NCBI GenBank assembly: GCA_002713365.1
Contig: PASR01000002.1
Span: forward strand, 3,133-67,132
Length of the DNA: 64,000 bases
Source: Rhodospirillaceae bacterium
Lineage (GTDB): Bacteria; Pseudomonadota; Alphaproteobacteria; UBA6615
Direction of reading: 5' to 3'
Shown here piece after piece: positions 15,715 to 42,500 of this stretch. A program made the position numbers and the translations under genes. The notes beneath the pieces are model-generated. The model was not told the origin of the DNA, did no database searches, and saw only the letters and a list, made by a program, of their open reading frames with translations. Each line of letters opens with the position of its first letter. Position 1 is the stretch's first letter.

Positions 15715-15716
15715 AG

Positions 15717-17753: not shown

Positions 17754-17778
17754 GTAATACCTACAGGAGGTTTAGTAT

Positions 17779-18648: not shown

Positions 18649-18699
18649 TAAAACATTAGCAACAATTTAATTTTTACCCGTTTACTAAGACATGTGATG

Positions 18700-20361: not shown

Positions 20362-20462
20362 ATAGTTTAAAATTACTAAAACTAACGGTGAAAAGAAAGT
20401 CAGTCAGTTTCCTCTATAATATATTAATCATTTGTTTATTATTTATATTTATATATAGATTA

Positions 20463-21140: not shown

Positions 21141-21242
21141 TGCTTAACAGCTTTCACTCTTTAGGATCGTGTTAAAAATACATGTTATTCCTATTAGAGG
21201 ACAAAAATATTTTAAATCATTGTAAAATATATAAAACTTCTA

Positions 21243-21878
21243 TTACAAAATACTACTTTTATCCCAATTAATACCTTTGTCTGGTGATTCAGCAGTAATA
21301 TGCATTGCTTCGGCGAGTCTATTGGTACAATTCCAAAGAGCGGTAGTATAAGTCAATTCTACTATTTCAGCTTTTGAAAAGTGATCAAGCATTCTTTGAA
21401 AAAGTTTATCTTTCTCACGGGCCGACATATCTGTTACCGCGTTTGCCCAATCGAGAACAACTTTTTCTTTTTCACTAAAGCTATTGTTTTTATGCCAAGA
21501 ATTAGAAGAGATTGATGATAGTTGTCCTTCAGTAAATTCTAGCTGTCGTGCCAGTGCTACATTATGATGAGCGCAATTATGACATGCGTTATCTAGAGAA
21601 GGTTTAAGTATACATAGCACTTGCATTCGTGAGCGCTCTCGATCGTTAGCACGTAGAGCGGCAACTTTTATGTCTCTATCAAAAACAAGAAAGCTTCTAG
21701 CGGCCCCTGGAGAATGCGCTAACACTTGTATAAACTTAGGAACAATACCGTACATATTGAGACATAGATCATAGAGTTCTGTTACTTCTGGTGACTCGCT
21801 TCCTGGTTCTATTGCTGGTATACGGGTGTTTATTGGGCATGCCATATCACTGAGAACTTGATCTACTGATTTTTCCAC
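21243..21878 (-). CDS. Carboxymuconolactone decarboxylase / AhpD-like family protein
   Basis: 211 aa, all-helical, with a CHNCAHH (CxxC..H) motif as in AhpD-like peroxidase-related proteins. Confidence 0.7.
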   Translation of the reverse strand: MEKSVDQVLSDMACPINTRIPAIEPGSESPEVTELYDLCLNMYGIVPKFIQVLAHSPGAARSFLVFDRDIKVAALRANDRERSRMQVLCILKPSLDNACHNCAHHNVALARQLEFTEGQLSSISSNSWHKNNSFSEKEKVVLDWANAVTDMSAREKDKLFQRMLDHFSKAEIVELTYTTALWNCTNRLAEAMHITAESPDKGINWDKSSIL

Positions 21879-22001
21879 CTTAGTTCCTTTTACGCTGTTT
21901 ATTAAAACATAGAACTTACTTAATATTCTGCAGCACTTGTTTTATAAGAAATAAGTACTCAAGTGCTTATATAGCTGGGTATTTATTATTTTATTATAGA
22001 T

Positions 22002-22850
22002 TTAGGTCTTTGTTCTCATAAGAGTTATATAAATTAATGCTGTAGCAAACATTATAAGGCTATAAGTAGCAGCTGGAATGATAACTGGGCCACCTCCAAA
22101 TAATAATGTACCTACAGCTATTGCTAATGTTCCATTTTGCAAACCGCATTCTATAGATATTGCTGTCCTTTGTTTTGGTCCAGATGCAAAAATTGTAGCA
22201 ATAATATAGGCAACAAGCATCATTACTACGTTTAGTGCCAACGTGACCAGACCTGCCTGTGCAAAATATTCAACTATATTTTCTCGTTGCTGAAATATTG
22301 CTCCTAAAAGTACCAGTGCAAATAATACAGCCGATATTTTTTTTGCCCAAGGTTCAAACCGTAATGAAAAATCTGAAGCAAACTGCCTAAATATTAAACC
22401 AATACATACTGGTATAGTTACTATAAGGAAGACACTAATTGCTATTTTATTTATATTAATGTTCTTGCCATCTCCGTCGAAAAGTAAATTGTAAGAAAAT
22501 CCTATTATTATAGGAATTGAAATAACACTTATGAGACTGATAATGGCTGTAAGAGAAATTGATAAGGCTACATCACCTTTTGCAAATGAAGTTAAAATAT
22601 TTGAGGTTACACCACCTGGCGCTGCCGCTATTATCATAACACCTAAAGCGAGTTCTGCGGGCAAGTTCCATAAACCGATAAGAAAAAGTGCGATTAAGGG
22701 TAACAGTATTAACTGGGAAGCTAATCCTATTATAAAATCCCGCGGCATTTTAGCTACTCTAGTAAAGTCTGCTAAAGTGAGTCCTAAGCCTAAAGCGAAC
22801 ATTATAAACGCCATAGCTAATGGAAGTATAATTTCAGTTACTATTCCCAT
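22002..22850 (-). CDS. Bile acid:sodium symporter (BASS/SBF) family transporter
   Basis: 282 aa polytopic protein. LGLGLTLADF and AAAPGGVTSNILT motifs are typical of SBF-like carriers. Confidence 0.8.
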   Translation of the reverse strand: MGIVTEIILPLAMAFIMFALGLGLTLADFTRVAKMPRDFIIGLASQLILLPLIALFLIGLWNLPAELALGVMIIAAAPGGVTSNILTSFAKGDVALSISLTAIISLISVISIPIIIGFSYNLLFDGDGKNININKIAISVFLIVTIPVCIGLIFRQFASDFSLRFEPWAKKISAVLFALVLLGAIFQQRENIVEYFAQAGLVTLALNVVMMLVAYIIATIFASGPKQRTAISIECGLQNGTLAIAVGTLLFGGGPVIIPAATYSLIMFATALIYITLMRTKT

Positions 22851-23033
22851 AGCTCCCCCCAGTAAGAAATTTTATTCACACTTATTATTATATATTTTAG
22901 AAATATTTGCCATAAATTTAGCAATTATTATATATCTAAATATTTTAACTCTTAGGTGAAAGGGAGTTTATATTTTCTTATATATTTAGGAATTGTTTAC
23001 AAATGATCTGAATTAATTAATTTATTTATTTAT

Positions 23034-23474
23034 TTATTTATTTTTCATTTCTTGTTTCCGCATTGGCATTGTATCAATCAATTTAAATATGGCCTCATTA
23101 GTAATAGCTTTTTGCGATCTTAATTTCTCATTACCATCTTTTCCAACAAGTATTGCTAAATAATCATATTTATCAGCAGAAAAATAATTTTTTAAATTTT
23201 CAGTATTCATATTGTTATGAGAGAGCCCATTTATCATTACTATATTGTTAGGACCTAACTCAATAAGAACTAGATCTCGGTCGTTCCATCCATTTAGCGC
23301 TAAGTCTCTATTTTTACTTAGTTGATGTGCTTCAGAATATCCACTCTCAGAAATAAATGAAATTATAACTCTATTTTTCCATCTGTACTTACTTAAGTCT
23401 AAAGCTAAAACTTCATTTGATGTAACAAATGATGACATTATAAATATTGCAATGAGGCTTATTAAGTTTTTCAA
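23034..23474 (-). CDS. Exported DUF4174-like protein
   Basis: 146 aa. Signal peptide MKNLISLIAIFIMSSFVTSNEVLA, then WKNRVIISF...LVGKDGNEKL...IDTMPMR, which I recognise as the DUF4174 pattern. It lies 59 nt downstream of the LLM gene on the same strand. Confidence 0.55.
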   Translation of the reverse strand: MKNLISLIAIFIMSSFVTSNEVLALDLSKYRWKNRVIISFISESGYSEAHQLSKNRDLALNGWNDRDLVLIELGPNNIVMINGLSHNNMNTENLKNYFSADKYDYLAILVGKDGNEKLRSQKAITNEAIFKLIDTMPMRKQEMKNK

Positions 23475-23533
23475 AATTAATACTACGTATATTTTTTTAT
23501 AAATATAAAGTTAAAAATATTATTATAACTAAA

Positions 23534-24652
23534 CTAACCAGTAGCCGACTGTTCTTGTGGTTCAATATGAGTATTTACTCTTGGCATCACTTCCTCGGCC
23601 ATCAATTGAAGGGAACGCTTGCTAAGTTTCTCATCTACCCAGTCCATACCAGCATAAACTAGTTCTCCAAAATCGCCTGTTGTCTCACGAAACTCTAAAA
23701 TTTGTTCTACCACACTATCAACTGTTCCGCATATTACTAAATCCTCAATAACTCGATCTAGAGTTATGGAATCATCGGGTTCATCTGGATGATTTTTAAA
23801 GACTGCTTGCCTATTGCCTCTTATGAGCTTTTTAAGTATTTGGCTGTAATAAAAACGGTAAGGACTATTTATATTATACTTACCATATTCTTTGGCCGTA
23901 GTGTCATCGTCAGCCACAAATATTGTCCTAGCTATTCTCCAGTCTGATATAGATGCCTTTTTATTAGCATTAGACTTACCTTCACTGTAGTTCTTCCAGT
24001 GTGTAGCAACCCATTTGGGGAGTAAGAAATTTGCAGAAAGTGGATGAAAGTCTCTTTCTCCCATAGCTATTACCCCCTTAGAAAAAGGAGCTACAACTGT
24101 CCCAACAATCTCTGGATAAGGTTTTTGATATGGTTTTGGTAAAATACCATAACCAACTTCAGGGTATCGGGTTTTAGATGTACTTACTTTAAATCTGTTA
24201 TTATTCAGATCAATGTTATAAGGAGATTCACCTTCCCAAATCGCGATAATTACATCAATTGCTTCCGCAAACATTTTATTTCTATCTTCATCAATAATTC
24301 CTAAAGCCTCGGCATCAGACCTGAGAGCACCTGGACTTATACCCAGAATAAATCTACCCTCTGAAAGGTGATCGAACATAGCTGCATGTGCAGCAATTAG
24401 GACAGGATGCATATGAGATAGATTGGTAGTCCCCGTCGCCAATTTAATATTCTTGGTAGAATTTATTAGGGTTGCTTGGAAAAGCATGGAATTAGTTATG
24501 TTTTCAGCCTGGTCTGTAAGATGTTCTCCCACAAAGGCGTCATAAAAACCTAATTCATCACATAACACTATAGTCTCTCGGTCTTCTTTTAGTGTTGTTG
24601 TATAATCACGATCAAGTGGGTGAACAGGCATAGTAAAATAACCAAGTCGCAT
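23534..24652 (-). CDS. Luciferase-like (LLM class) flavin-dependent oxidoreductase
   Basis: 372 aa. N-terminus MRLGYFTMPVH...FDAFVGEHL and a TIM-barrel LLM layout. SD AAGGAAAAAAT precedes the ATG. Confidence 0.85.
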   Translation of the reverse strand: MRLGYFTMPVHPLDRDYTTTLKEDRETIVLCDELGFYDAFVGEHLTDQAENITNSMLFQATLINSTKNIKLATGTTNLSHMHPVLIAAHAAMFDHLSEGRFILGISPGALRSDAEALGIIDEDRNKMFAEAIDVIIAIWEGESPYNIDLNNNRFKVSTSKTRYPEVGYGILPKPYQKPYPEIVGTVVAPFSKGVIAMGERDFHPLSANFLLPKWVATHWKNYSEGKSNANKKASISDWRIARTIFVADDDTTAKEYGKYNINSPYRFYYSQILKKLIRGNRQAVFKNHPDEPDDSITLDRVIEDLVICGTVDSVVEQILEFRETTGDFGELVYAGMDWVDEKLSKRSLQLMAEEVMPRVNTHIEPQEQSATG

Positions 24653-24682
24653 ATTTTTTCCTTATTTATCGCTTTTTATATA

Positions 24683-24710
24683 TATACGCAGAATTTTTAT
24701 AAACAGATCA
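24683..24710 (-). promoter_or_regulatory. ECF sigma-E-type promoter (TGATCT-N16-CGTATA) upstream of the LLM oxidoreductase gene
   Basis: Read on the minus strand, TGATCT is at 24710-24705, followed by a 16-nt spacer and CGTATA at 24688-24683. The C of CGTA lies 36 nt upstream of the ATG at 24652. The architecture matches the five other sites in the window. Confidence 0.6.
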
Positions 24711-24796
24711 GTTACAAAAGTTACTAGATTATAATTAATTATTTTAACAAAATTTTATTAGAATTACATGCAAATCTAAAAGATAAAATATTAATG

Positions 24797-24824
24797 TCAT
24801 CCAAATTATTTTAAAATACGTACA
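24797..24824 (+). promoter_or_regulatory. Near match to the sigma-E-type motif (TCATCC-N16-CGTACA) upstream of the SDR gene at 24951
   Basis: Spacing and CGTA are conserved, but the -35 core is CATC instead of GATC. It lies back to back with the LLM promoter, like the two exact divergent pairs. Confidence 0.25.
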
Positions 24825-24950
24825 AGTGATAACTCCTTTAAATAAATAATTTTTATGTATTTTATTAGATTACTATTCACATATATCAGAATATTAGGAT
24901 TAAATTAAATAACTATGTTAACAGCTAAAAGTACCTATGATTATATAAAC

Positions 24951-25685
24951 ATGGAATCTTTTGCAGGCTCTTTAAATGTACTAATAATAGGGGCTTCTGG
25001 AGGTATTGGTGGAGCAGTTATTAGTAACCTTTCCAAAAACCCCACAACACGTATATGGGCAACTGCACGAAAGAATATAGAATATAATTCTGATATGATT
25101 ATTCCTCTTTTTTTAGATCTTAATGATGAAAAGTCAATTAAATCAGTAGCGGAGAATATAGCTAATTCAGGAAATACATTGGATTTGGTACTAGTTGCTA
25201 CAGGCTTTCTCCACGATGCTCTGATTAAGCCTGAAAAAACATGGAAATCATTAAATCATAGTTCCTTTAGTAAATCTTTTTCTATCAATTGTATTGGTCC
25301 AGCTTTAGTCGCGAAACATGTATTGCCCCTACTCAGAAAGGAAAGTAAGTCTGTGTTTGCAGTGTTATCAGCAAGAATTGGAAGTATATCTGATAATCAT
25401 ACTGGTGGTTGGCACAGCTATAGAGCATCTAAGGCAGCTTTAAACATGTTAATTCGTACACTTGCTGTTGAGTTATCACGTACAAATCCAAGTGCATTAT
25501 GTGTAAGTCTACATCCTGGAACCGTAGACACTAGCTTATCTCTACCCTTTCAAAGAGGTGTTTCTAAAGAACAGCTATTTAACAAGAATTTAGCAGCTTC
25601 TCAGTTATTAAACGTAATTGACACATTGAAGATTAATTCATCCGGGGGGCTTTATGCTTGGGATGGAAAATCAATCGCTTTCTAA
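24951..25685 (+). CDS. Short-chain dehydrogenase/reductase (C-factor-like SDR)
   Basis: IIGASGGIGGA cofactor motif and the YRASKAALN catalytic motif. I start at Met13 of the track ORF (nt 24951), which places the Rossmann motif at its usual N-terminal distance. Confidence 0.8.
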   Translation: MESFAGSLNVLIIGASGGIGGAVISNLSKNPTTRIWATARKNIEYNSDMIIPLFLDLNDEKSIKSVAENIANSGNTLDLVLVATGFLHDALIKPEKTWKSLNHSSFSKSFSINCIGPALVAKHVLPLLRKESKSVFAVLSARIGSISDNHTGGWHSYRASKAALNMLIRTLAVELSRTNPSALCVSLHPGTVDTSLSLPFQRGVSKEQLFNKNLAASQLLNVIDTLKINSSGGLYAWDGKSIAF

Positions 25686-25712
25686 ACGATTTTCAAAAAG
25701 TTTTGATTTAAA

Positions 25713-27140
25713 TTATTTATTTTTAATTTTTTTAAAACAGTCTAGGGCATATTTTCTTGTTACGACATGATCCACAATAGGATGAGGATAATTTCTTCCA
25801 ATAGCTACGTTTGCATTCAATAAAACGTCACTAGGTGCAAGCCATGGTTCATGTAGGTATTTAGTTGGTAGCTTAGATAGCTCCGGCACCCATTTTTTTA
25901 TATATAGCCAGTTTGGATCAAATCTTTGACTTTGTCTAGTTGGATTAAATATACGAAAAAATGGTGCTGCATCAGCTCCACAACCAGCAATCCACTGCCA
26001 GCTAGCTGAATTATTAGCTAAATCGGCATCAACCAAAGTATCCCAAAACCAGGCTGCTCCATCACGCCAGTCCATAAGTAAATTTTTTACGAGAAAAGAA
26101 CCTGAAATCATTCGTACACGGTTATGCATATACCCAGTTTCCCAAAGTTCTCGCATGCCAGCATCAATTATCGGATAACCAGTTTTACCTTTTTGCCAAC
26201 TTTTTAAAAGATTTTTATCCTTTCGCCATGGGAAGTTATCAAATTTTGTTTGAAGATTTATGTTGGGTAAATTTGGAAAATAATAGAGGAGTGAATATGA
26301 GAATTCTCGCCAGGCAAGTTGTGATAAAAATTTATTAATACTTAGATTAGAGTTTTTTATATTTTGAAACTTTTTAGTCTCATACCATACCATATTTGGC
26401 GATATAGAACCCCAGTGTAGGTGCACTGAAAGCTTAGATGTAGATTTAACTGCAGGAAAATCTCGATTATTTTTATAATCTTGTAATTCTGTGTTTATAA
26501 AAGTATGGAGATGTTTTTGTGCAGTAGACTCACCTACATTCCAATGCTTAGCTAAATTAGATTCCCATTGTTTATTTGTTAGAAGAGAAAGTGATGACAA
26601 AGATCGAGAATAATCTTTCGTCTCATATAACTTGATGCTCTTTGGCTTACTGATGGGCGAACGAGGTGGAACTGCACACATGCAGCCTCGTTTATAAAAT
26701 GGAGTAAATACTTTATAAGGTGATCCATCCTTTTTAAGGACTTCCCAAGGTTCCCATAATAGTGAGCCATTAAAGCTTTTTACCTCAATGTTCTTAGGCA
26801 ATATATTTTCTTTCAATATTTTATCTCGTGATATACGCCATGGTTCATAACAACGATTCCAAAAAATACCAGATGCTCCGGTATTTGCTATAAGGTCAGG
26901 AATTAATTTTAGAGCGTTTCCTTCTAAAATACATAATTTACCGTCAAGTGAATGGTTTAACGAATTAAGTTGTTGGTGCAACCACCACCGCGCCGCTCCT
27001 CTAATTGAATTTTTATCTACATTAACGTTATCAAATATATATAGGGGAAGTACTTCACCTAATTTAGCAGCCTCATATAACGATGGGTTATCAGTAAGCC
27101 TTAAATCTTGTCGAAACCAATGAATTATAATTCTATCCAT
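25713..27140 (-). CDS. phr: Deoxyribodipyrimidine photolyase (class I CPD type)
   Basis: 475 aa. N-terminal IHWFRQDLRLTDNPSL and C-terminal FAD-binding motifs DADLANNSASWQWIAGCGADAAPFFRIFNP closely parallel E. coli PhrB. Confidence 0.9.
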   Translation of the reverse strand: MDRIIIHWFRQDLRLTDNPSLYEAAKLGEVLPLYIFDNVNVDKNSIRGAARWWLHQQLNSLNHSLDGKLCILEGNALKLIPDLIANTGASGIFWNRCYEPWRISRDKILKENILPKNIEVKSFNGSLLWEPWEVLKKDGSPYKVFTPFYKRGCMCAVPPRSPISKPKSIKLYETKDYSRSLSSLSLLTNKQWESNLAKHWNVGESTAQKHLHTFINTELQDYKNNRDFPAVKSTSKLSVHLHWGSISPNMVWYETKKFQNIKNSNLSINKFLSQLAWREFSYSLLYYFPNLPNINLQTKFDNFPWRKDKNLLKSWQKGKTGYPIIDAGMRELWETGYMHNRVRMISGSFLVKNLLMDWRDGAAWFWDTLVDADLANNSASWQWIAGCGADAAPFFRIFNPTRQSQRFDPNWLYIKKWVPELSKLPTKYLHEPWLAPSDVLLNANVAIGRNYPHPIVDHVVTRKYALDCFKKIKNK

Positions 27141-27249
27141 TACTACAAATGCCTTTATTCTTTAGTTTAATTTCATTAATTTGAGGCTGGATATTAATAT
27201 ATTAAATTAATAGAATTTAATATTATTTATGAAATTTAGGGTTTAACTG

Positions 27250-27277
27250 TGATCCATAGTTTAAATAAAAACGTAAG
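27250..27277 (+). promoter_or_regulatory. ECF sigma-E-type promoter (TGATCC-N16-CGTAAG) upstream of the DUF2177 gene
   Basis: TGATCC at 27250-27255, 16-nt spacer, CGTAAG at 27272-27277. The C of CGTA lies 40 nt upstream of the ATG at 27312, which has a GAGG SD. Confidence 0.65.
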
Positions 27278-27311
27278 ATCGGTGTGACTAAAACAGAGGT
27301 AGGGACTCAAT

Positions 27312-27716
27312 ATGCTAAAAATCTATGCATTAGCATCTCTTTTTACTTTCCTTGTATTCATAATCGTTGATTTTATATGGTTAGCTAATGCAACTCGTTT
27401 CTTATATAAACCTCATATAGGTCCACTTTTGCTAGAAAAGCCTGTTCTACCTGCGGCTGCCATATTCTACATCCTTTATGTATTTGGACTGATATTTTTA
27501 GTTCTAAAGCCTGCAATTGATGCCAATTCTGTAATAAATGCTATTTGGTTAGGGGGGGTATTTGGTCTTGTGGCTTATGGCACCTATGATCTTACCAACT
27601 TAGCCACCATAAGAGGATGGTCAGTTACTGTCACACTAGTAGATATGGTGTGGGGAGCTTTCCTTACGGGTCTTTCAGCTGGTCTGGGTGTATGGATTGC
27701 ATTTAAGTTTAATTAA
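27312..27716 (+). CDS. DUF2177-like small membrane protein
   Basis: 134 aa with 4 hydrophobic helices. The VDFIWL...Y...G and GTYDLTN pattern is one I associate with DUF2177, a family co-occurring with sigma-E/ChrR regulons. Confidence 0.6.
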   Translation: MLKIYALASLFTFLVFIIVDFIWLANATRFLYKPHIGPLLLEKPVLPAAAIFYILYVFGLIFLVLKPAIDANSVINAIWLGGVFGLVAYGTYDLTNLATIRGWSVTVTLVDMVWGAFLTGLSAGLGVWIAFKFN

Positions 27717-27766
27717 CTAATAAAATTTTATGTTCAGCATATATGTATGCTAATTTAAATCCAGAT

Positions 27767-28405
27767 TTATGAACCGCTTCCAATAATATTCATAAATTCT
27801 TGCCTAGTAGCGGGGTTTTCTCTGAATGAACCAAGCATATGGCTGGTATGCATGTCCACTCCTGGTTTATTAACACCTCGTGTAGTCATGCATTGATGTG
27901 ATGCCTGAACAATGACGCCAACTCCTCTAGGCGATAAAACATCATCAATAGTATTTGCTATTTGTGCTGTCATTTTTTCTTGTATCTGAAGGCGGCGGGC
28001 ATAGACTTCTACTATTCGAGCCAATTTACTTATTCCGACAACACGCTGATCTGGAAGGTATCCTACATGTGCTTTACCGATTATAGGCGCCATATGGTGT
28101 TCGCAGTGACTAACGAATGATATATTGCTAAGTACAATCATTTCATCATAGCCCTCTGTTTCAGTAAATGTTCTCTCAAGTATGGCTATTGGATCTTGAG
28201 AGTAACCATTAAAAAACTCGTCATAAGAGCGCACCACTCTATCTGGGGTGCTTCTTAATCCTTGCCGGGTTACGTCTTCACCAGCGTAAGCTAGGAGAGT
28301 TCTTACAGCTCTAATGGCTGCTTCTTTAGGCGGCCTTTTATTGCCTATATACGGAGGTTTTTCTTTATCTTCCTCTACAGAAAAATTTAGATTATTTTTA
28401 GCCAT
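27767..28405 (-). CDS. folE: GTP cyclohydrolase I
   Basis: 212 aa with the FolE hallmark motifs [30 protein letters not shown] and [18 protein letters not shown] precedes the ATG. Confidence 0.95.
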
Positions 28406-28443
28406 TACGTGAGCTCCAAATTTTTTTTTATTTATTTAACGAT

Positions 28444-28518
28444 CCAGTATAGGACCGAGCTAATAGGGAGATACGAGCTCGGTCCAGATTTCTCGGGGGG
28501 GCCGGGAAATCTAACTGG
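28444..28518 (-). promoter_or_regulatory. Candidate structured RNA (three-way junction) in the folE 5' leader; unclassified
   Basis: P1 pairs CCAGT 28444-28448 with ACTGG 28514-28518. P2 pairs GGACCGAGCT 28452-28461 with AGCTCGGTCC 28476-28485 (perfect 10 bp, 14-nt loop). P3 pairs AGATTTCTCGG 28486-28496 with CCGGGAAATCT 28502-28512 (11 bp with one T-G/C-A position, 5-nt G/C loop). It is a GC-rich island in an AT-rich spacer, downstream of the folE sigma-E-type promoter. Strand is assigned from context only. Confidence 0.45.
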
Positions 28519-28549
28519 TTAAGACCTCAAGTAGTCTAAACTATTAAAA

Positions 28550-28577
28550 TATACGATAATTAAAATATTCTGGATCA
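28550..28577 (-). promoter_or_regulatory. ECF sigma-E-type promoter (TGATCC-N16-CGTATA) directed toward folE
   Basis: Read on the minus strand, TGATCC is at 28577-28572, followed by a 16-nt spacer and CGTATA at 28555-28550. This predicts a ~140-nt folE leader containing the structured element. Confidence 0.6.
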
Positions 28578-28635
28578 CTGTTAGATAAAACAAATTATTT
28601 TAAGTAGTAAATGTGTTTTATAAATAATCTATAGG

Positions 28636-28663
28636 TGATCTGTAATCATAACTTCTGCGTAAG
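28636..28663 (+). promoter_or_regulatory. ECF sigma-E-type promoter (TGATCT-N16-CGTAAG) directly abutting the SDR start codon
   Basis: TGATCT at 28636-28641, 16-nt spacer, CGTAAG at 28658-28663. The ATG at 28671 lies 13 nt after the C of CGTA, the same spacing as at rpoE. Confidence 0.6.
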
Positions 28664-28670
28664 AAAGGTG

Positions 28671-29480
28671 ATGATGTTATTGAACTCAATAAGATATAGA
28701 AACTTTAAAAATCCAAATGAATCACTTGCATGGATTACAGGGGCAAGTAAGGGTATTGGACGAGCTCTGGCTATTGAATTAGCTTCTAATGGATGGAAAG
28801 TTGCTGCGAGTGGAAGGAACTTAGATGAACTTAATAGCTTACTAAATAAAAATAAAGAGTGTTCTGGTAATATCTATATTTATCCATTTGATACTACTGA
28901 TGAGTCATTAGCCAAAGAAGTCTACACTAGGATTGAGAACGAACACGGACCTATTAGTTTGGCTATACTAAATGCAGGGACCCATAATCCAGTTGATGGC
29001 GAGTCTTTAGAGATAAAAAGCATTAAAAGAGTTATTAACACTAATCTAACGGGAACTGTTAATTGTCTTGTGCCTACTTTAGAAAGTTTCATTGCCAGAA
29101 GGTCAGGACATATAGCGGTTATGACCTCTCTTGCTGGATATCGTGGTTTGCCAACGGCTAGCGCTTATGGGGCTACAAAAGCGGCCTTAATTAATATGTG
29201 TGAGGCTTTACGCGTTGAGGTTGAAAAGTCGGGTGTGGTTATATCCATAATTTCCCCTGGATTCGTTAGAACTACATTAACTGATCGTAATTCTTTTCCT
29301 ATGCCATTTTTGATGGAACCAAAGGAGGCTGCAAAGAGAATTATTCGTGGATTAGAATCACACCGATTTGAAATCGCATTTCCACGCCGTTTTTATTATT
29401 TTATTAAAATATTACGTATCTTACCGTATACACTATTTTTCTTTATAACCCGTCGCCTCATTAATAAGAATAAGGGCTAA
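28671..29480 (+). CDS. Short-chain dehydrogenase/reductase
   Basis: TGASKGIGRALA cofactor motif, NAG, and the YGATKAAL catalytic motif. The track's GTG start at 28635 overlaps the promoter motif, so I prefer ATG 28671 (or 28674). Confidence 0.85.
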   Translation: MMLLNSIRYRNFKNPNESLAWITGASKGIGRALAIELASNGWKVAASGRNLDELNSLLNKNKECSGNIYIYPFDTTDESLAKEVYTRIENEHGPISLAILNAGTHNPVDGESLEIKSIKRVINTNLTGTVNCLVPTLESFIARRSGHIAVMTSLAGYRGLPTASAYGATKAALINMCEALRVEVEKSGVVISIISPGFVRTTLTDRNSFPMPFLMEPKEAAKRIIRGLESHRFEIAFPRRFYYFIKILRILPYTLFFFITRRLINKNKG

Positions 29481-30718
29481 TTTTTTTCTAAACGATATTG
29501 TCCTACTGATATTGTCCCTGATAAGAATCCTGCTTCACAGTAACTTAAATAATAAGTCCATAAACGGTTGAACTTTTGGTCAAATCCTTGCTGCTCTATA
29601 TATGGCCAAGCCGTTAAAAACCTCTCTCGCCATTCTTTGAGCGTGAGGGCATATGATGAAGCAAAACTATTTTTTAAAGCAATATTAAGGCCTGAATTTA
29701 CTGTTGCTTGCGTAATTGCCTCTTCAGATGGAAGCATCCCTCCTGGGAAGACCCTTAATTGTATAAAATCAGGGTTACTTCGATATTTATCTAACCTTGA
29801 GTTGTCAATTGTTATAACCTGTAGTCCTGCTGTTCCGCCCTGGACAAGGTTTTGTCTTATATTTGTGAAGTATTTTTCCCAATAAAACTCACCAACCGCT
29901 TCAAACATTTCTATTGATACTATTCGATCGTAGGTATCTTTAATATCACGATAGTCTTTTACTAGAATATCGATATATTCAGTTAATTTTTCTTTTGACA
30001 CCCAAGATTTTGCCCATTCTGCTTGTCTCCTAGATAATGTTAAGGCCGTAACTCGGCAGCCAAAGTTTTTTGCTGCGTATATGGAAAATCCTCCCCAGCC
30101 ACACCCTATTTCTAAAATATTATCTCCATGATTAATACCAGTAATTTCGGCTATTTGTTTGTATTTTTCGTTTTGAGATTCGGCTAATGTGGTATGAGTA
30201 TTGTTAAATATGCCCGAAGAGTAAGTCATAGAATTATCTAGCCAAGCTTGATAGAATTCATTGCCTAGGTCGTAATGATTCGCAATATTACGTTTGCTGC
30301 CTGCGTAAGTGTTTGCATTAAGTGCATGTTTAAGCTTATTTAGTAGAAGTGAGGGTTGATATTTAGTCCATGGTGATAAAAGTGCTGCTTCATTTGCAAT
30401 TCCTAGAGAGATAACTTTAGTAAGGTCAGGTGTCTCCCAATCTCCATCAATATATGAATCTGCAAACCCAATGGCCCCGCCAAATAAACATCTACGAACA
30501 AACCTTGAATTATTAACAACTATACTTGCTTTTATACCGGAGACATTGCCTTTATTTGACCATTTAGTTCCATCTGGCCATAATATTTCAAGTTCTCCCG
30601 AATGAATATATTTTGTCCATTTCTTAAAAATATATTTATTAAGCCTAGATCTATTTTTCTTTTGTAATGTTTTATTAGATAAATCCCTATTTGGAACTGT
30701 TTGCGTAAAATTACTCAT
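29477..30718 (-). CDS. Cyclopropane-fatty-acyl-phospholipid synthase family SAM-dependent methyltransferase
   Basis: 413 aa. HYDLGNEFY, ILEIGCGWGGF (SAM motif I), IVSIEMFEAVG and YLSYCEAGF are hallmark CFA/mycolic acid synthase motifs. Its 3' end overlaps the convergent SDR gene by 4 nt. Confidence 0.9.
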   Translation of the reverse strand: MSNFTQTVPNRDLSNKTLQKKNRSRLNKYIFKKWTKYIHSGELEILWPDGTKWSNKGNVSGIKASIVVNNSRFVRRCLFGGAIGFADSYIDGDWETPDLTKVISLGIANEAALLSPWTKYQPSLLLNKLKHALNANTYAGSKRNIANHYDLGNEFYQAWLDNSMTYSSGIFNNTHTTLAESQNEKYKQIAEITGINHGDNILEIGCGWGGFSIYAAKNFGCRVTALTLSRRQAEWAKSWVSKEKLTEYIDILVKDYRDIKDTYDRIVSIEMFEAVGEFYWEKYFTNIRQNLVQGGTAGLQVITIDNSRLDKYRSNPDFIQLRVFPGGMLPSEEAITQATVNSGLNIALKNSFASSYALTLKEWRERFLTAWPYIEQQGFDQKFNRLWTYYLSYCEAGFLSGTISVGQYRLEKN

Positions 30719-31517
30719 TGGTAAAACCAGAACGCGGACTGACTATAGATATCGATGCAGAATCTGCTGGCTGATGCTGAAAAACTGGTATGCGTTTACG
30801 CCATAAATTAAAAGCCTCCCAATAGATTCCAGCTATCACTTTAACGGTCATAAATGGATAGCGTATTAGAGCTAGTGTAAGAAATATATTTGTTAAAGAT
30901 TTAGCTTTACCTCTAAAAATTGCAACTAAAAGCGAGCCCTCTATATCCGCTTCTTCCATAGTAATGCTCAATCCTTTGTCTGGAGGAACTATTGTCATAT
31001 TGTATATGCAATCCATTGAAACGAACGGTGAAACATAAAACACTTTATCAAAACTATGCTTTAGAGTTGCTAACCTATTATCACCAATGGGCACTACGTA
31101 CGTATGTGACTCACCGAAAGTATTATTTACTTCATATAGAATTGCATTCAGACAATCGTGTTTATTATAGCAAAAATATATACTGACAGGGTTAAACACG
31201 TAGCCAAGCATCCGTGGTAAACACATTAGCATCACTCTTCCATCTTCTATATCTATATCTGCCTTTTTCAGGGTCTTAAAAACCCACGATAATAATGAGG
31301 TGCCATCTCGAGGGCCATGATCAACATCATAAAATGAAAATACTCCTGGGCGATTGTATGAGAATAATTTTAACTTTTTATCCAATATTTCTAGGTCCCC
31401 TAGATTTAGAAGAAGATAGAACACTCTATACTTTAAAAGGTGTTTTTTTGGGCGATGTCTTAAATGGCTAACAAAGCCACTATATGCCATTGATGTGGAC
31501 ATTGGTTTATATTCCAA
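30711..31517 (-). CDS. DUF1365 family protein
   Basis: 268 aa. GFVSHLRHRPKKHLLKYRVFYLLLNLGDLE...FSFYDVDHG matches the DUF1365 N-terminal pattern as I recall it. It sits between FAD oxidoreductase and CFA synthase genes, which is this family's usual context. It overlaps the downstream gene by 8 nt. Confidence 0.75.
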   Translation of the reverse strand: MEYKPMSTSMAYSGFVSHLRHRPKKHLLKYRVFYLLLNLGDLEILDKKLKLFSYNRPGVFSFYDVDHGPRDGTSLLSWVFKTLKKADIDIEDGRVMLMCLPRMLGYVFNPVSIYFCYNKHDCLNAILYEVNNTFGESHTYVVPIGDNRLATLKHSFDKVFYVSPFVSMDCIYNMTIVPPDKGLSITMEEADIEGSLLVAIFRGKAKSLTNIFLTLALIRYPFMTVKVIAGIYWEAFNLWRKRIPVFQHQPADSASISIVSPRSGFTNE

Positions 31518-31537
31518 TTAGTTGGTATTTTTTATAT

Positions 31538-32860
31538 TTAAAGATTATCATTACTAGCGATTAACCGGTCATTTTGTCTAGGAAGGGACCAAGGTCTTTT
31601 TACCTTTCCTAGTTTTTCTGCAACCCATAAACCTGATTGTAACGCATCTTCATGGAATCCATAACCAAAATAACTTCCGCAAAACCAAGTTTTATTTTTA
31701 CCTTGAATATGACTTAGTTGTCTTTGGCCCTTGATTGCCTCAGTATCAAACAAAGGGTGATGGTATTTTATAGAAAGATATGTCTTTGATGGTGATGGGG
31801 GAGTGTTAGGATTAAGGGTTAGAAATAAATTTTTGGGATAACTAAGGTTTTGTAAATTACTAACCCAATAAGTTACTTGCGGAGATATGTTATCACTATC
31901 CTCGTTATTTATGTAGTTCCAGCTTGCCCAGACACGTTTACGTTTAGGCATAAATGTAGAGTCTTTATGTAGGAAAGCTGAATTGGAAGTATATGAGAAT
32001 CTGCTAAGAATCTGATGTTCTGTTTTAGTTGGATTATAAATTAATTTTAGTGCTTCATCAGCATGTAAGGCCAATATTACTTCATCGAATAAATTTCGGT
32101 TTCCCTTGTCATCTATAACCTCAACATTGTCTTGATGTCTTATTATTTGCTTAACATTAACATTACAAAAAATTTTATCAGTAAAATCAGCCGTTAAACG
32201 ATCTATATAATTGCGACTACCACCAGTTACTGTTCTCCAGGATGAACGCTTTCCTAGTTTAAGTAGGTTATGACTTTCAAAAAAACGTATGAATGATTCC
32301 GCTGGATAATTATTGATATCCATACTTGGTGAAGACCATATAGCAGCCCCCATAGGTAGAATATGGTCAACTATGAAACTATAACTATAATTTTCCTTAT
32401 CAAGGTAATCACGTAAAGTTAAACCTCTAAGATTTCCTGTTCGCAAGTCAATAGGCGCTTTTTTATAAAATCTTTTAACATCGAAAAGCATTTTCCAGAA
32501 CATCGGCCGCAGTAAATTAATTTTTTGTCCAAATAAACCTATTGGAAACTTGCTGGAATATTCAAAGTTGCCTGCTCTTGAAGATATTGCAAAAGACATG
32601 TCGCTAGTTTGTGTTTGTATATTTAAATAATCAAAAAGGGCTACTAAATTAGGATAATTAAAATCATTGTAGACAATGAAACCTATATCGGCGTTTATGT
32701 TTGAGGTACCAATATTTAGTGAAACGGTATTTGCGTGTCCTCCAATTTTATTCGCCCTTTCAAAAACACTTAGACTAAAACTTTGGTTCAATAACCAAGC
32801 TGCAGATAATCCGGCAATTCCTCCCCCAATAACTGCAATTTTTTGTGATTTATTGTCCAA
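31538..32860 (-). CDS. FAD/NAD(P)-binding amine-oxidase/desaturase-like oxidoreductase
   Basis: 440 aa. N-terminal KIAVIGGGIAGLSAA dinucleotide-binding motif and a flavin amine-oxidase/phytoene-desaturase-like layout. It starts at TTG (32860), with AGGA 12 nt upstream. Confidence 0.85.
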   Translation of the reverse strand: MDNKSQKIAVIGGGIAGLSAAWLLNQSFSLSVFERANKIGGHANTVSLNIGTSNINADIGFIVYNDFNYPNLVALFDYLNIQTQTSDMSFAISSRAGNFEYSSKFPIGLFGQKINLLRPMFWKMLFDVKRFYKKAPIDLRTGNLRGLTLRDYLDKENYSYSFIVDHILPMGAAIWSSPSMDINNYPAESFIRFFESHNLLKLGKRSSWRTVTGGSRNYIDRLTADFTDKIFCNVNVKQIIRHQDNVEVIDDKGNRNLFDEVILALHADEALKLIYNPTKTEHQILSRFSYTSNSAFLHKDSTFMPKRKRVWASWNYINNEDSDNISPQVTYWVSNLQNLSYPKNLFLTLNPNTPPSPSKTYLSIKYHHPLFDTEAIKGQRQLSHIQGKNKTWFCGSYFGYGFHEDALQSGLWVAEKLGKVKRPWSLPRQNDRLIASNDNL

Positions 32861-32895
32861 TTGTATATATCCTAGTTAAATATATGGTGTATACA

Positions 32896-32923
32896 CTTAC
32901 GAACATCATTACTACGCAGATCA
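32896..32923 (-). promoter_or_regulatory. ECF sigma-E-type promoter (TGATCT-N16-CGTAAG) for the FAD oxidoreductase-DUF1365-CFA synthase operon
   Basis: Read on the minus strand, TGATCT is at 32923-32918, followed by a 16-nt spacer and CGTAAG at 32901-32896. The C of CGTA lies 41 nt upstream of the TTG start at 32860. Confidence 0.65.
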
Positions 32924-32959
32924 CTATTTAACATAGAGTATAAAAAAAACGTTTAATAT

Positions 32960-32987
32960 AGATCCATTATCTGAGAGCCTACGTATA
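32960..32987 (+). promoter_or_regulatory. ECF sigma-E-type autoregulatory promoter (AGATCC-N16-CGTATA) for rpoE-chrR
   Basis: AGATCC at 32960-32965, 16-nt spacer, CGTATA at 32982-32987. The ATG at 32995 lies 13 nt after the C of CGTA. It is back to back with the promoter at 32923-32896. Confidence 0.65.
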
Positions 32988-32994
32988 AGTATGT

Positions 32995-33669
32995 ATGTTG
33001 CAGATTATGACCAGGCCAGAATTAAGTATAAACCCATATATAGGGTCCGATTTATTAAAATCGTTAACAAGTCTTTGGATTAATCAAGCTTTGCAAAAAC
33101 CAATACAAAACAAACAACCTACAGATCCAATTGACTGGTCAAATGTTTTAGGCAGGGTTGCTGATGTTGGAGATGTAGAAGCTTTTAAGAGCATATTCGA
33201 ATATTTTGCTCCTAGGGTGAAAGCCTATATTATGCGTTTAGATTGTGACAGCTTGGTTGCTGAGGAACTAACGCAGGAGGTTATGTCAATTGTTTGGCGC
33301 AAAGCCAAGCAATATGACTCATCTAAAGCTGCAGCATCTACATGGATATTCACGATTGCCAGAAATCTCAGAATAGATACATTCCGAAAAGAAAAACGCC
33401 CAGATCTTGACCCATATGATCCCTCTTTGGCGCCTGATCCAGATATTTCTTCGGAAGATGTAGTGTTCGCTAAACAAAAAGCAGCACGCCTTAATACAGA
33501 AATTAAAAAGCTGCCCAGTGAACAAAGGCAAGTACTACATATGTCATTTTATGACGATATTAGTCATGCTGAGATTGCTAATCAGCTTAACTTGCCCCTT
33601 GGAACAGTAAAATCCAGAATAAGGTTAGCCTTTCAACGTATAAAAAATTCTCTTGGAGAAGAATTGTGA
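32995..33669 (+). CDS. rpoE: ECF-type RNA polymerase sigma factor (RpoE of the ChrR-partnered group)
   Basis: Region 2 (FEYFAPRVKAYIMRL...ELTQEVMSIVWRKA...STWIFTIARNLRIDTFRKEKRP) and region 4 (QRQVLHMSFYDDISHAEIANQLNLPLGTVKSRIRLA) closely parallel R. sphaeroides RpoE. Its stop overlaps the chrR start (GTGA). Confidence 0.9.
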   Translation: MLQIMTRPELSINPYIGSDLLKSLTSLWINQALQKPIQNKQPTDPIDWSNVLGRVADVGDVEAFKSIFEYFAPRVKAYIMRLDCDSLVAEELTQEVMSIVWRKAKQYDSSKAAASTWIFTIARNLRIDTFRKEKRPDLDPYDPSLAPDPDISSEDVVFAKQKAARLNTEIKKLPSEQRQVLHMSFYDDISHAEIANQLNLPLGTVKSRIRLAFQRIKNSLGEEL

Positions 33670-34322
33670 TTATTAACCACCACCCACCGGAAGACTTATT
33701 ATTTGCATACTCTGCAGGAGATCTCGCAGAGGCATGGTCATTGATGATAGCCACACACGTATCACTGTGTTCGAGCTGTAGACATCAAATGTTCGATGCA
33801 GAGGCTATAGGTGGCTCTTTAATAGAAAATATAACGCCAGAATTATTAGAAAATGATATTTATGAAAAAACGCTGGCAATTGTAAAAAATGAAGAGCAAT
33901 TAGCTAAACCTGAACTTTTAAGTCAAAGTGATTATTCTGATGTTCTGCCTTATCCTCTGCTTCAGTACACTCGAGCTGATATAGATGATTTGCCTTGGAA
34001 AAGGTTAGGGAAAGATGCATTTCATATACCTCTTGTTAAAGGACGCAATGGAGAACTAGCCCGACTTCTTAGAATACAAGAAGGTAAAGCAGTGCCTGAA
34101 CATGGTCATAACGGAACAGAGCTGACAATGGTTTTGTCGGGAAGTTTTTCAGATGAAAATGGACAGTTTGTAAGAGGTGATGTTGAAACAGCTGATATAG
34201 ATGTTATCCATCAGCCTAGTGCTGATGCTGGTGAGGACTGTATCTGTTTAGTTGTAACAGATGCTCCTCTCGAGTTTACCTCTCCACTAGCTCGTTTATT
34301 TCAACGTTTTGTTAATATATAG
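33666..34322 (+). CDS. chrR: Anti-sigma-E factor ChrR (zinc-binding anti-sigma domain + C-terminal cupin)
   Basis: N-terminus HHPPEDLLFAYSAGDLAEAWSLMIATHVSLCSSC carries the H-x3-C-x2-C ZAS motif. The C-terminal cupin shows EHGHNGTELTMVLSGSF. Translationally coupled to rpoE. Confidence 0.9.
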   Translation: MIINHHPPEDLLFAYSAGDLAEAWSLMIATHVSLCSSCRHQMFDAEAIGGSLIENITPELLENDIYEKTLAIVKNEEQLAKPELLSQSDYSDVLPYPLLQYTRADIDDLPWKRLGKDAFHIPLVKGRNGELARLLRIQEGKAVPEHGHNGTELTMVLSGSFSDENGQFVRGDVETADIDVIHQPSADAGEDCICLVVTDAPLEFTSPLARLFQRFVNI

Positions 34323-34393
34323 AAATATTAGTCAACTTATTAAAGTATCGTCCTTTTATTGATCAATGTAATTATTGAATACTTAATAAAAGT

Positions 34394-35551
34394 TTATTTA
34401 TATTGGCCTAATTCAGCTCGTCTCATTACAGCCCATTTATATTGTTCAGGCCATAAGCTAAAGGCATCAGTAATATTTAATTTTTCAGCAGCATGCAGGG
34501 CCCAAAAGGGGTTATGCATAAGTTCTCTTCCCAAGGCAATTAGATCTGCGCAGTTATTATTCAAAATGTCTTCTGCTTGTTTAGGATAAACAATTCGGCC
34601 AACTGCCATAGTCATAATATCAGCGTCAGATTTTATGTTCTCCGCATAAGGCACCTGAAATCCAAGTGGTCGGTCGCCAGCTGAGTTTATAGGACTACCG
34701 TCATCTTTCGATCTAAAAGCTGGAGCTCCGGTAATGCCGCCTGCTGAACAATCAATAACATCAACACCTCTTGTCTTTAATTCTTTTGAAAGGGTTATTG
34801 AGTCAGTTATCTCCCAACCCTGATTATCTACAGCAGACATCCTAAAAAATAATGGAAAATCTCTAGGCCACGATTTGCGAACAGCTTCTGTAACTTCTAA
34901 TGCAAAACGCATTCTATTTTGTAGATTTCCTCCATACTCATCTTTTCTGTTATTGGTCATAGAAGAAAGAAAGCTATGAATTAGATATCCGTGTGCTCCA
35001 TGTATTTCTAATACTTTAAAACCTGCATTGGCAGCTCGTACAGAACTATCTGCAAAAGCAGTTATTATTCTTTTAATCTCATTTTTACTAAGTTCTTGGG
35101 GTGTTTGCCATCCTTCAGCCAATCTAATTTCTGAGGGGGCAACAGTTTTCCATCCCACATGCTTATTACTCTCATCTATTGTTTTTATTGGTATTCCTCC
35201 TTCCCAGGGAGGAGCTGCTGATCCTTTGCGTCCAGCGTGGGCAAGTTGGATGCCGGCAACAGATCCCATGGAATTAATAAATTCTGTTATTGGTTTAAGA
35301 GTTTCAGCTTGTTCATCAGTCCATATACCTAGACAACCAGGAGTAATTCTACCTCGTGATTCAACCGCAGTTGCTTCAGTAAAAACTAGGCCAACTCCTC
35401 CGCGAGCGAAGGTACTAAGGTGGGCGAATTGCCAGCTTGAGGCTACACCATTATTTGCTGAATACATACATAGAGGTGATAACACAATTCTATTACGTAA
35501 TAATACGTTGCGTATTTTTAGAGGGGAGAATAATTTTATTTTATTGCTCAT
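34394..35551 (-). CDS. NADH:flavin oxidoreductase, Old Yellow Enzyme family
   Basis: 385 aa. LRNRIVLSPLCMY, EIHGAHGYLIHSFLS and ADLIALGRE are canonical OYE/NemA-NamA motifs. Confidence 0.9.
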   Translation of the reverse strand: MSNKIKLFSPLKIRNVLLRNRIVLSPLCMYSANNGVASSWQFAHLSTFARGGVGLVFTEATAVESRGRITPGCLGIWTDEQAETLKPITEFINSMGSVAGIQLAHAGRKGSAAPPWEGGIPIKTIDESNKHVGWKTVAPSEIRLAEGWQTPQELSKNEIKRIITAFADSSVRAANAGFKVLEIHGAHGYLIHSFLSSMTNNRKDEYGGNLQNRMRFALEVTEAVRKSWPRDFPLFFRMSAVDNQGWEITDSITLSKELKTRGVDVIDCSAGGITGAPAFRSKDDGSPINSAGDRPLGFQVPYAENIKSDADIMTMAVGRIVYPKQAEDILNNNCADLIALGRELMHNPFWALHAAEKLNITDAFSLWPEQYKWAVMRRAELGQYK

Positions 35552-35648
35552 TATTTTTTTCTTTTCAGCTCTTCCATTAAATTATTTTTATAATTAAGAA
35601 CATATAATTAATCGTAAGTTATACAATAGTATTTTATGGAGACTTAAA

Positions 35649-36038
35649 ATGCGCTTTCTTTATCCTGCCTTTATGTTTTTACTTATATTCAACATTTTTA
35701 GTTTATTAGGATTCGTTGAGGTTTTTGCAAAGGATCACCGTAGTATAAATATATCTATAATTAATAAAGAGGCTATAGGTGCAGAAGTTAAAGAGTCTGG
35801 CGGATTAGGAGTTATTAGGGTAACTCAGGGACAGAAAGTACAAATTACTTGGCATAGTGATCAATCAACTGTACTTCACCTTCATGGCTATAACATTAAG
35901 ACAAAACTTCCCAAAGATATGGATGTAATTATGGAAATCAATGCCAGAGCGGCTGGTCGTTTCTCTATAGAGGCGCATGGATTTGGAAATGATCATAAGC
36001 ATAAGACGCTTATATACCTTGAAGTTCTACCGCAGTAA
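35649..36038 (+). CDS. Small exported cupredoxin-like, His-rich protein (function unknown)
   Basis: 129 aa. A signal peptide ends in VFA-KD, followed by a beta-rich body with LHLHGY and EAHGFGNDHKHK. The fold call is tentative. Confidence 0.5.
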   Translation: MRFLYPAFMFLLIFNIFSLLGFVEVFAKDHRSINISIINKEAIGAEVKESGGLGVIRVTQGQKVQITWHSDQSTVLHLHGYNIKTKLPKDMDVIMEINARAAGRFSIEAHGFGNDHKHKTLIYLEVLPQ

Positions 36039-36075
36039 TTGTTTAAAGACATTAACTTTAATTATTAATCAATTT

Positions 36076-37677: not shown

Positions 37678-37836
37678 TAAATTCATAGTCATAGACCATA
37701 TTATTTAGACTAATTAAATTATATGCTAATTAAAAAAAATAATATTTTATTAAATTACTTGTTCGAAAATTATTCTAAGTAAATATTCGTCTTATATTGG
37801 TTTCAATATGTTCTAAAATTTTGAGGATAATTAAAA

Positions 37837-39054: not shown

Positions 39055-39168
39055 CAAAGATGTAAGTTACAGTTTCCAACAAATTAGGTTTTGATACTGA
39101 AGAAATAATAATTTACCTTTAACTTCATATTTATAAAAAGTAAATTAAACGAACGTTTACTATATTTA

Positions 39169-40161: not shown

Positions 40162-40215
40162 TTTGTTAATATCAGTATTAGAATAAATCTATTTGTCTAA
40201 AGATCGTATATAAAA

Positions 40216-41898: not shown

Positions 41899-41933
41899 AA
41901 GTAATTTTTATAACTAAAAATGGAACATTAGAT

Positions 41934-42308: not shown

Positions 42309-42500
42309 GGATTGTTATCTAAACTACCATACCTGTGAATAGAATTTAAACAGCTATATAATAAGTTATTCATCTTCTAATAATCATAATCTAGTCAGTC
42401 TAATTGGAATGATACTATAAATTGAGATGTAATTAAATAATCCTGGATAGTAAGAGTTTACAGCTATAGCCCATATATTTTTATTTAAATCAGGTGTTAC

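Follow-up and report, generated by a model that had tools for sequence, protein, structure and literature searches.

An uncultured marine alphaproteobacterium of low GC content (~36%) carries, on the 64 kb of DNA analysed here (the window), what appears to be a cluster of sigma-E/ChrR regulon genes: seven promoter-like sites that are very likely functional sigma-E promoters, read by RNA polymerase with the extracytoplasmic function (ECF) sigma factor predicted at 32995-33669, whose gene adjoins that of the anti-sigma factor ChrR. A sequence-only reading of the same DNA had listed six copies of WGATCY-N16-CGTAWR and one near match, and an exact search for this pattern returns the same six, at the same coordinates and on the same strands, against 0.10 expected (standard deviation 0.30; the earlier rough estimate was below one). 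None of 100 dinucleotide-preserving shuffles held six or more matches. Relaxing the pattern to GATC[CT]-N14..19-CGTA still gives just those six, all with a gap of 16 nt, which agrees with the claim that the rest of the window holds no further copy. The looser ATC[CT]-N16-CGTA gives eight matches, namely the six, the near match at 24797-24824 and one intragenic antisense match at ~58012. When up to two mismatches are permitted the count is 35 versus 28 expected, so a count by itself does not identify degenerate copies.

All six exact sites are intergenic, lie in four spacers at 24.6-33.0 kb and are oriented toward a start codon, as had been proposed. Three of the spacers hold two sites back to back, with inner distances between the -35 hexamers of 86, 58 and 36 bp (the 86-bp pair includes the near match), and the fourth spacer (27141-27311) holds the site of the DUF2177 gene alone. 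The 16-nt spacers and the flanks of the sites show no mutual relationship, and the sites are therefore not copies of a duplicated segment. The motif is the same as the published TGATCC-N16-CGTA consensus, which the first reading had correctly named as a sigma-E promoter. This is the consensus for PSPTO_1043 of Pseudomonas syringae, where it is supported by ChIP-seq peaks and qRT-PCR induction (PMC5507510), and for RpoE2 of Shewanella oneidensis, in which TGATCC and CGTAAT/CGTATT precede mapped transcription starts (PMC4336711); both studies note the likeness of their consensus to the Rhodobacter sphaeroides sigma-E promoter.

The comparisons that follow use related loci gathered via ChrR and FolE homologues and given L-numbers. 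The tightest promoter pair in the window separates the regulator genes from a lipid-modification operon. Its plus-strand member, AGATCC-N16-CGTATA at 32960-32987, would be the autoregulatory promoter of rpoE-chrR, and published rpoE promoters bear the same motif (PMC5507510, PMC4336711). Its minus-strand member, TGATCT-N16-CGTAAG at 32896-32923, stands 37 nt (counted, here and below, from the last base of CGTA to the start codon) before an ufaD-ufaO-ufaM-like operon (29477-32860, minus strand) that consists of a flavin adenine dinucleotide (FAD) amine-oxidase-like gene (31538-32860; Pfam Amino_oxidase), a DUF1365 gene (30711-31517; Pfam DUF1365) and a cyclopropane-fatty-acid (CFA)-synthase-like methyltransferase gene (29477-30718; Pfam CMAS). 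The FAD-oxidase site is kept in all relatives that hold this spacer (L004, L007, L008, L011, L013, L016, L097 and L101), and the rpoE site is kept in the same ones. In Rhodopseudomonas palustris the furan fatty acid genes RPA2571-2569 are ufaD-ufaO-ufaM, and the R. sphaeroides counterparts are RSP1091, RSP1090 and RSP2144 (PMC7380195). From their families and gene order, the FAD oxidase, DUF1365 and CFA-synthase-like genes of the window are predicted to correspond to UfaD, UfaO and UfaM; a CFA-family S-adenosylmethionine methylase, an FAD desaturase-like protein and DUF1365 are encoded together, as in a furan fatty acid gene set. The furan-fatty-acid genes of R. sphaeroides are required for ChrR turnover under singlet oxygen (PMC3546557, PMC6852236).

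The second pair lies between folE and a short-chain dehydrogenase/reductase (SDR) gene, here called SDR-b. On the minus strand TGATCC-N16-CGTATA (28550-28577) faces folE (27767-28405; GTP cyclohydrolase I of type IA by Pfam GTP_cyclohydroI and by TIGR00063 above cut-off) through a structured leader of 146 nt, and the motif recurs upstream of folE or of a fasciclin-folE unit in L095, L016, L008, L097, L100, L101, L102, L019, L020, L033 and L057. On the plus strand TGATCT-N16-CGTAAG (28636-28663) faces SDR-b (28671-29480; Pfam, NCBIfam and a gene call in L003), with a leader that would be very short or absent. This site is kept upstream of the SDR orthologue in L095, L008, L011, L013, L097 and L101, and as CGATCT in L016. 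It overlaps the longest possible open reading frame (ORF) of SDR-b, which begins at GTG 28635, so the true start must be ATG 28671 or 28674; the gene call in L003 begins at the equivalent of 28674. From CGTA to ATG 28671 the gap is 9 nt, and for rpoE it is 9 nt to ATG 32995 or 21 nt to ATG 33007. In both genes the first in-frame ATG (28671 and 32995; window 28658-28673 and 32982-32997) thus begins 10 nt past CGTA, a closeness which suggests that the rpoE and SDR-b mRNAs are leaderless or nearly so. The spacing at rpoE is similar in relatives, with 10 nt in L004 (3456-3471) and 9 nt in L016 (5280-5292), and it is 22-24 nt in the GC-rich relatives.

The remaining sites concern three genes. TGATCC-N16-CGTAAG (27250-27277, plus strand) precedes a DUF2177 membrane protein gene (27312-27716, plus strand; Pfam) by 36 nt and is kept in L095, L016, L097 and L100. 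TGATCT-N16-CGTATA (24683-24710, minus strand) precedes a luciferase-like monooxygenase (LLM) gene (23534-24652, minus strand; Pfam Bac_luciferase) by 32 nt and is kept upstream of the LLM orthologue in L095 (5274-5297) and in L016 (12174-12199), where the orthologue is 81% identical. On this sequence evidence the LLM gene is a predicted lineage-specific target, and the transcript from its promoter may run on into the DUF4174 and SBF transporter genes. Back to back with the LLM site lies the weak site TCATCC-N16-CGTACA (24797-24824, plus strand), which faces a further SDR gene, SDR-a (24915-25685, plus strand; Pfam, NCBIfam PRK09009-like).

This last site was the near match of the sequence-only reading, and its standing depends on which evidence is used: by count it does not stand out (the 35 versus 28 above), whereas by conservation it does. 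Its TCATCC and CGTA are kept in L095/L096 even though 5 of the 16 spacer bases differ, and the orthologous spacer of L016 has AAATCC-N16-CGTAAA on the correct strand, a match that arises in 0.4% of spacer shuffles (P = 0.004). An induced promoter of P. syringae has a similar gcATCC -35 element (PMC5507510). Because it is conserved at the orthologous spot in two diverged relatives we accept 24797-24824 as the seventh site, and it is probably a weak sigma-E site. Two other weak candidates, from the search with two mismatches, were rejected: TGATCC-N16-CGAATC at 35710-35737 (minus strand), considered as the promoter of an OYE flavin oxidoreductase gene, falls within a conserved ORF and has no conserved counterpart in L005 or L016, and AGTTCT-N16-CGTAAA at 21889-21916 (minus strand), which precedes a peroxidase-related gene, is not kept in L095.

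Relatives at three distances bear on whether the sites are functional. In the nearest lineage (L004, L095 and L096; ChrR/FolE identity 86-88%) gene order is unchanged, and when its four spacers are aligned to the window the ten core positions of the seven sites are identical in 70 of 70 cases, compared with 96 of 112 positions (86%) in the 16-nt spacers and 531 of 665 (80%) in the remaining intergenic positions. A second low-GC relative, L016, has proteins that are 50-81% identical and keeps synteny except for the photolyase; in it the motif precedes the FAD-oxidase operon, rpoE, folE, DUF2177 and LLM, and CGATCT-N16-CGTAAA precedes SDR-b, which with the AAATCC site of SDR-a makes seven sites at the same genes as in the window. 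The GC-rich relatives L007, L008, L011, L013, L097, L100 and L101 (ChrR identity 54-60%, GC ~60%) keep the divergent rpoE/FAD-oxidase promoter pair, and most of them also the SDR-b/(fasciclin-)folE pair, in spacers that cannot be aligned outside the motif. Since position and orientation are kept across a 25-point shift in GC, this is strong evidence that the sites are functional.

As regards the comparison set, the FolE scan of metagenomes returned mostly unrelated bacteria, because FolE is too conserved, and its useful yield was L015, L016, L019, L020, L033 and L057; a search of genome contigs with the DUF1365 protein gave only two distant Thiocystis loci, neither with informative sites. A position weight matrix trained on the sites of the relatives was not used as an independent test, since its training set had itself been selected by that regular expression. 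Two additional consensus sites in relatives have no annotated gene directly downstream, one in L016 (5498-5523, minus strand), ~200 nt upstream of the proximal rpoE promoter, and one in L013/L014 (4822-4846, minus strand), divergent from the SDR promoter. These extra sites may drive small RNAs (sRNAs) or small ORFs; R. sphaeroides has sigma-E-dependent sRNAs (PMC5036791).

The regulator genes themselves place the system. The rpoE gene (32995-33669, plus strand, with its start at ATG 32995 or 33007, on which gene callers differ, giving 224 or 220 aa) encodes an ECF11 sigma factor with Pfam matches to Sigma70_r2, r4 and r4_2, and among solved structures it matches R. sphaeroides RpoE best (2Q1Z_A, E = 2.6e-43), with the second-ranked ECF at 1.8e-21. 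The chrR gene (33666-34322, plus strand), which overlaps the rpoE stop codon by 4 nt, encodes a zinc anti-sigma factor with a C-terminal cupin domain (Pfam Cupin_7), for which the best solved structure is R. sphaeroides ChrR (2Z2S_B, E = 1.1e-46). All eight zinc ligands of 2Z2S_B, in the list taken from a review of the ECF11 group (PMC6852236), are kept: H6, H31, C35 and C38 in the anti-sigma domain and H141, H143, E147 and H177 in the cupin, where EHGHNGTELT and a later His of the window protein correspond to the R. sphaeroides ligands. NCBI gives the name 'MAG: ChrR family anti-sigma-E factor [Alphaproteobacteria bacterium]' to one protein in the same 90% cluster. The features that define ECF11 thus occur together, namely an RpoE-like ECF with regions 2 and 4, an adjoining zinc anti-sigma factor, the cupin ligands, the motif at the rpoE promoter, and core targets (the FAD oxidase/DUF1365 operon, a CFA-synthase-like gene and an SDR gene; core list in PMC3546557) with a promoter of this type. 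By homology and gene context, the two genes form a true ECF11 sigma-E/ChrR pair and are orthologues of R. sphaeroides RpoE/ChrR. The proposal that sigma-E/ChrR-type promoters precede the regulators' own operon and its typical targets is supported by the motif, by this orthology and by the conservation in relatives. At the N-terminus of the sigma factor (window 33007-33120) ~31-35 residues precede the region that can be aligned to R. sphaeroides RpoE (query residue 39 corresponds to residue 8); the protein has a similar length in relatives (220 aa), and tblastn gave no alignment of this extension between the window and L016.

The first reading had also described the known regulon families as exactly those clustered here. 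Pfam and NCBIfam confirm the families, and those of the published core and extended regulons that are matched in the window are rpoE-chrR, UfaD, UfaO, SDR, CFA-synthase-like and GTP cyclohydrolase, with fasciclin in relatives (PMC3546557, PMC7074977, PMC7380195); membership of the photolyase does not hold. The photolyase gene (25713-27140, minus strand; Pfam DNA_photolyase, FAD_binding_7) lies antisense between SDR-a and the DUF2177 promoter, and no sigma-E-type site was found in its upstream spacer at up to two mismatches. A sigma-70-like scan of the window found 36 matches versus 48 expected, with none on the photolyase strand in that spacer. In the syntenic L016 there is no photolyase between SDR-a and DUF2177. 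With no site and with this absence from the L016 cluster, the photolyase is not a regulon member here by the DNA criterion, even though R. sphaeroides and P. syringae have it in the core of their regulons (PMC3546557, PMC5507510). It has the look of an insertion that gained no promoter of this kind, or of a gene expressed in some other way.

A mechanism can be proposed in which the sigma-E holoenzyme would bind TGATCY as the -35 element and CGTA as the -10 element, with 16 nt between them. In the unstressed cell the zinc anti-sigma factor ChrR would sequester sigma-E in an inactive state. Removal of ChrR would follow exposure to singlet oxygen or organic hydroperoxide, by analogy with R. sphaeroides, Caulobacter crescentus, P. 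syringae and S. oneidensis. Freed sigma-E would then transcribe rpoE-chrR, giving positive autoregulation, as well as six further units: the divergent ufaD-ufaO-ufaM-like operon, whose R. sphaeroides counterpart feeds back on ChrR turnover, the two SDR genes, folE, DUF2177 and LLM. The transcription starts, the inducing signal and the dependence on sigma-E are all inferred. Several points weigh against this picture. For this organism the support comes from sequence only, and specificity was assessed within 64 kb. The two sites that lie 9 nt before the first ATG suggest leaderless or near-leaderless mRNAs, the SDR-a site, whose -35 element is missing its G, may be very weak, and the photolyase, a core member elsewhere, has no site, although this bears on variable membership and not on the identity of the regulator pair.

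Among the alternatives the most durable leaves the promoters as genuine sigma-E promoters and changes the signal, which would be UV-A or blue light, peroxides or another membrane-lipid signal in place of singlet oxygen. We give this a serious but less than even chance. Homologous systems in C. crescentus, P. syringae, S. oneidensis, Vibrio cholerae and Stenotrophomonas maltophilia respond to other stimuli, among them organic hydroperoxide, H2O2, superoxide, UV-A, blue light and cadmium (PMC6852236, PMC4336711, PMC5241685, PMC11832516), and photosynthesis genes are not seen in the window, the organism being presumably non-photosynthetic. However, the ChrR cupin ligands needed for the singlet-oxygen response of R. 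sphaeroides are all kept, and the furan-fatty-acid genes tied to singlet-oxygen sensing are present (PMC7380195).

It is much less probable, and in our estimate quite improbable, that the sites are read by some factor other than this sigma-E, either an ECF sigma paralogue encoded elsewhere in the genome or a regulator of a GATC-containing box. Further ECF sigma genes may exist outside the 64 kb covered; but two boxes with a fixed 16-nt gap and a strict gene-ward orientation are the architecture of an ECF promoter, the match to the ECF11 consensus is exact (PMC5507510, PMC4336711), and in every relative a copy of the motif precedes rpoE itself, the hallmark of an autoregulated ECF gene. That the sites are chance matches in AT-rich spacers, or belong to a duplicated spacer segment, can be set aside, since the near-expectation count at two mismatches is outweighed by the absence of any shuffle with six exact matches, by the unrelated spacers and flanks, and by cores that are fully conserved against the 80% background and recur in GC-rich relatives. 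Recognition of the seven sites by the sigma-E encoded beside them accordingly remains the reading we prefer.

The sigma-E/ChrR system has been characterised since 1999-2008, and the regulon of the window is a further instance of a thoroughly studied system, of low novelty. Sigma-W promoters of Bacillus subtilis (TGAAAC-N16-CGTA) have the same -10 CGTA and the same 16-nt spacing; that system differs from the one in the window in its -35 element, its ECF group and its unrelated anti-sigma factor, RsiW. With R. sphaeroides the window shares the orthologous regulator pair, the promoter consensus and the divergence of rpoE-chrR from an operon led by UfaD and UfaO, and the targets of both include an SDR, a CFA-synthase-like methylase and a GTP cyclohydrolase (PMC7074977). 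In R. sphaeroides the operon RSP1091-1087, 'divergently transcribed from rpoE-chrR' (PMC3546557), contains the genes of UfaD and UfaO (DUF1365) and the SDR gene RSP1087, the CFA-synthase-like gene being RSP2144 (PMC3546557, PMC7380195); in Shewanella the motif is present at both rpoE2 (SO_1986) and the divergent SO_1987 (PMC4336711). The back-to-back layout is therefore not new. Nor is folE a new class of target, since the R. sphaeroides RpoE regulon already lists the GTP cyclohydrolase folE2 (RSP_1852), together with the fasciclin protein RSP_1409 (PMC7074977). The annotation of RSP_1852 as a hypothetical protein or one of unknown function (PMC7074977, PMC3441632) leads us to suspect that it is of the non-homologous type IB.

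The window differs from R. sphaeroides in that its methylase gene sits within the ufaD-ufaO operon, as in RPA2571-2569 of R. palustris, its photolyase has no motif, its folE unit has lost the fasciclin gene, and its folE is of type IA; it adds the LLM oxidoreductase and DUF2177, and rpoHII and cycA are not seen in it. P. syringae PSPTO_1043/ChrR and S. oneidensis RpoE2/ChrR use the same consensus and likewise have clustered targets (the PSPTO_1121-1114 and SO_3386-3374 operons), which include photolyase, CFA synthase, amine oxidase, DUF1365-type proteins and SDRs (PMC5507510, PMC4336711). In these gammaproteobacteria the targets form one long operon, whereas the window has seven short units with three divergent pairs, and the catalase, glutathione peroxidase and similar genes of their regulons are not found in the window.

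The leader of folE (28406-28549, minus strand) has a feature of its own. It is GC-rich for this genome and folds at -42.6 kcal/mol (z = -4.0), and within it a 78-nt element (28443-28520, minus strand) appears as a conserved RNA structure in which a stem P1 encloses two hairpins, P2 and P3, the latter a 10-bp stem whose C-rich loop includes CUCC. An outer helix, predicted for the window and for L095, would also cover the Shine-Dalgarno (SD) region. The same architecture is found immediately upstream of folE in L095, L016, L097, L100 and L008, which in the GC-rich relatives places it between the fasciclin gene and folE, and independent single-sequence folds of L016, L097 and L095 give it as well. 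A covariance model, R1, built from six sequences and run over ~0.9 Mb of collected loci, has all its matches immediately upstream of folE, where the element is represented by 7 distinct sequences from 5 lineages. In the alignment of these seven, 86% of cells are paired and compensatory changes occur in 10 of 26 pairs; none of 500 shuffles equalled the observed values, and register-shifted controls were 25-51% paired. As the seven sequences are related and the structure was derived from them, this evidence is suggestive but not conclusive.

Rfam at the gathering score gave no match for the whole window or the folE leaders, folate-related riboswitches included, and short inputs (the elements of the window, L097 and L008) gave nothing relevant at E up to 10, THF-II included; the sole hint was the Atu_C10 sRNA in L008, at 19 bits versus a cut-off of 60. 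The THF-II riboswitch (folE motif) is, like the element of the window, a structured RNA directly upstream of folE in Alphaproteobacteria. THF-II has the architecture of one long hairpin, in contrast to the two hairpins closed by a stem seen here. In L008, L101 and L102 a P3-like hairpin is followed by a U run that resembles a terminator of the fasciclin gene, so the element may derive from an attenuator or terminator; where the fasciclin gene has been lost (the window, L095 and L016) there is no U run and the structure is still kept. The modelled fold could act as an anti-SD translational switch, as a stabilising 5' structure or as a riboswitch. That it is an undescribed cis-regulatory RNA, riboswitch-like or anti-SD and sensing, for example, pterin, folate or a GTP-derived metabolite, is a tentative idea that we consider unlikely. 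If it were true, the RNA would place one sigma-E target under a second control that acts after initiation, and sigma-E-driven pterin synthesis (folE with the divergent SDR) would be tuned to demand in light or oxidative stress, with pterin supplied, for example, for the antenna cofactor of photolyase.

The surroundings of the cluster were also surveyed. The closest named relatives, by ChrR homologues, are alphaproteobacterial and Rhodospirillales metagenome-assembled genomes (MAGs) from marine samples. Within the window GC is 0.40-0.47 in positions 1-20000 and drops to 0.32-0.37 in the regulon cluster (compared over 20000-38000); the cumulative GC skew levels off at ~18-36 kb. The first 20 kb hold TRAP transporter, molybdopterin oxidoreductase and caprolactamase-like genes. 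Downstream of chrR (34394-46200) there is a series of flavin and redox enzyme genes, for an OYE-type NADH:flavin oxidoreductase, NMO, a GMC oxidoreductase, a cupin, a flavin reductase and a second LLM. This stretch also has two conserved ORFs without a Pfam match (35649-36038 and 35977-37677), both syntenic in L016, and no conserved sigma-E-type site was found at any of these genes. In one GC-rich relative (L097 11452-14500; L098) a catalase-peroxidase gene (PF00141) comes after the cluster, as does a stand-alone Cupin_7 ORF of 150 aa that resembles the ChrR cupin; an ATCC-N16-CGTA match at 12160-12183 (minus strand) of L097 is located within the peroxidase gene.

These results raise no new question about the sigma factor itself, and the unclassified RNA of the folE leader is the only element that might open one. 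The ECF11 promoter code is unchanged from 36% to 60% GC, and the map should be of use for annotation of MAGs, for comparative mapping of regulons and as a guide to which of the 'extended regulon' genes flagged in PMC6852236, whose function is unknown, make good candidates. For this low-GC marine alphaproteobacterium, itself uncultured, the cluster provides a map, readable from the DNA, of a regulon for photo-oxidative stress, and it indicates which genes travel with the regulon in this clade: folE (with or without fasciclin), DUF2177, a second SDR and the LLM oxidoreductase, and not the photolyase.

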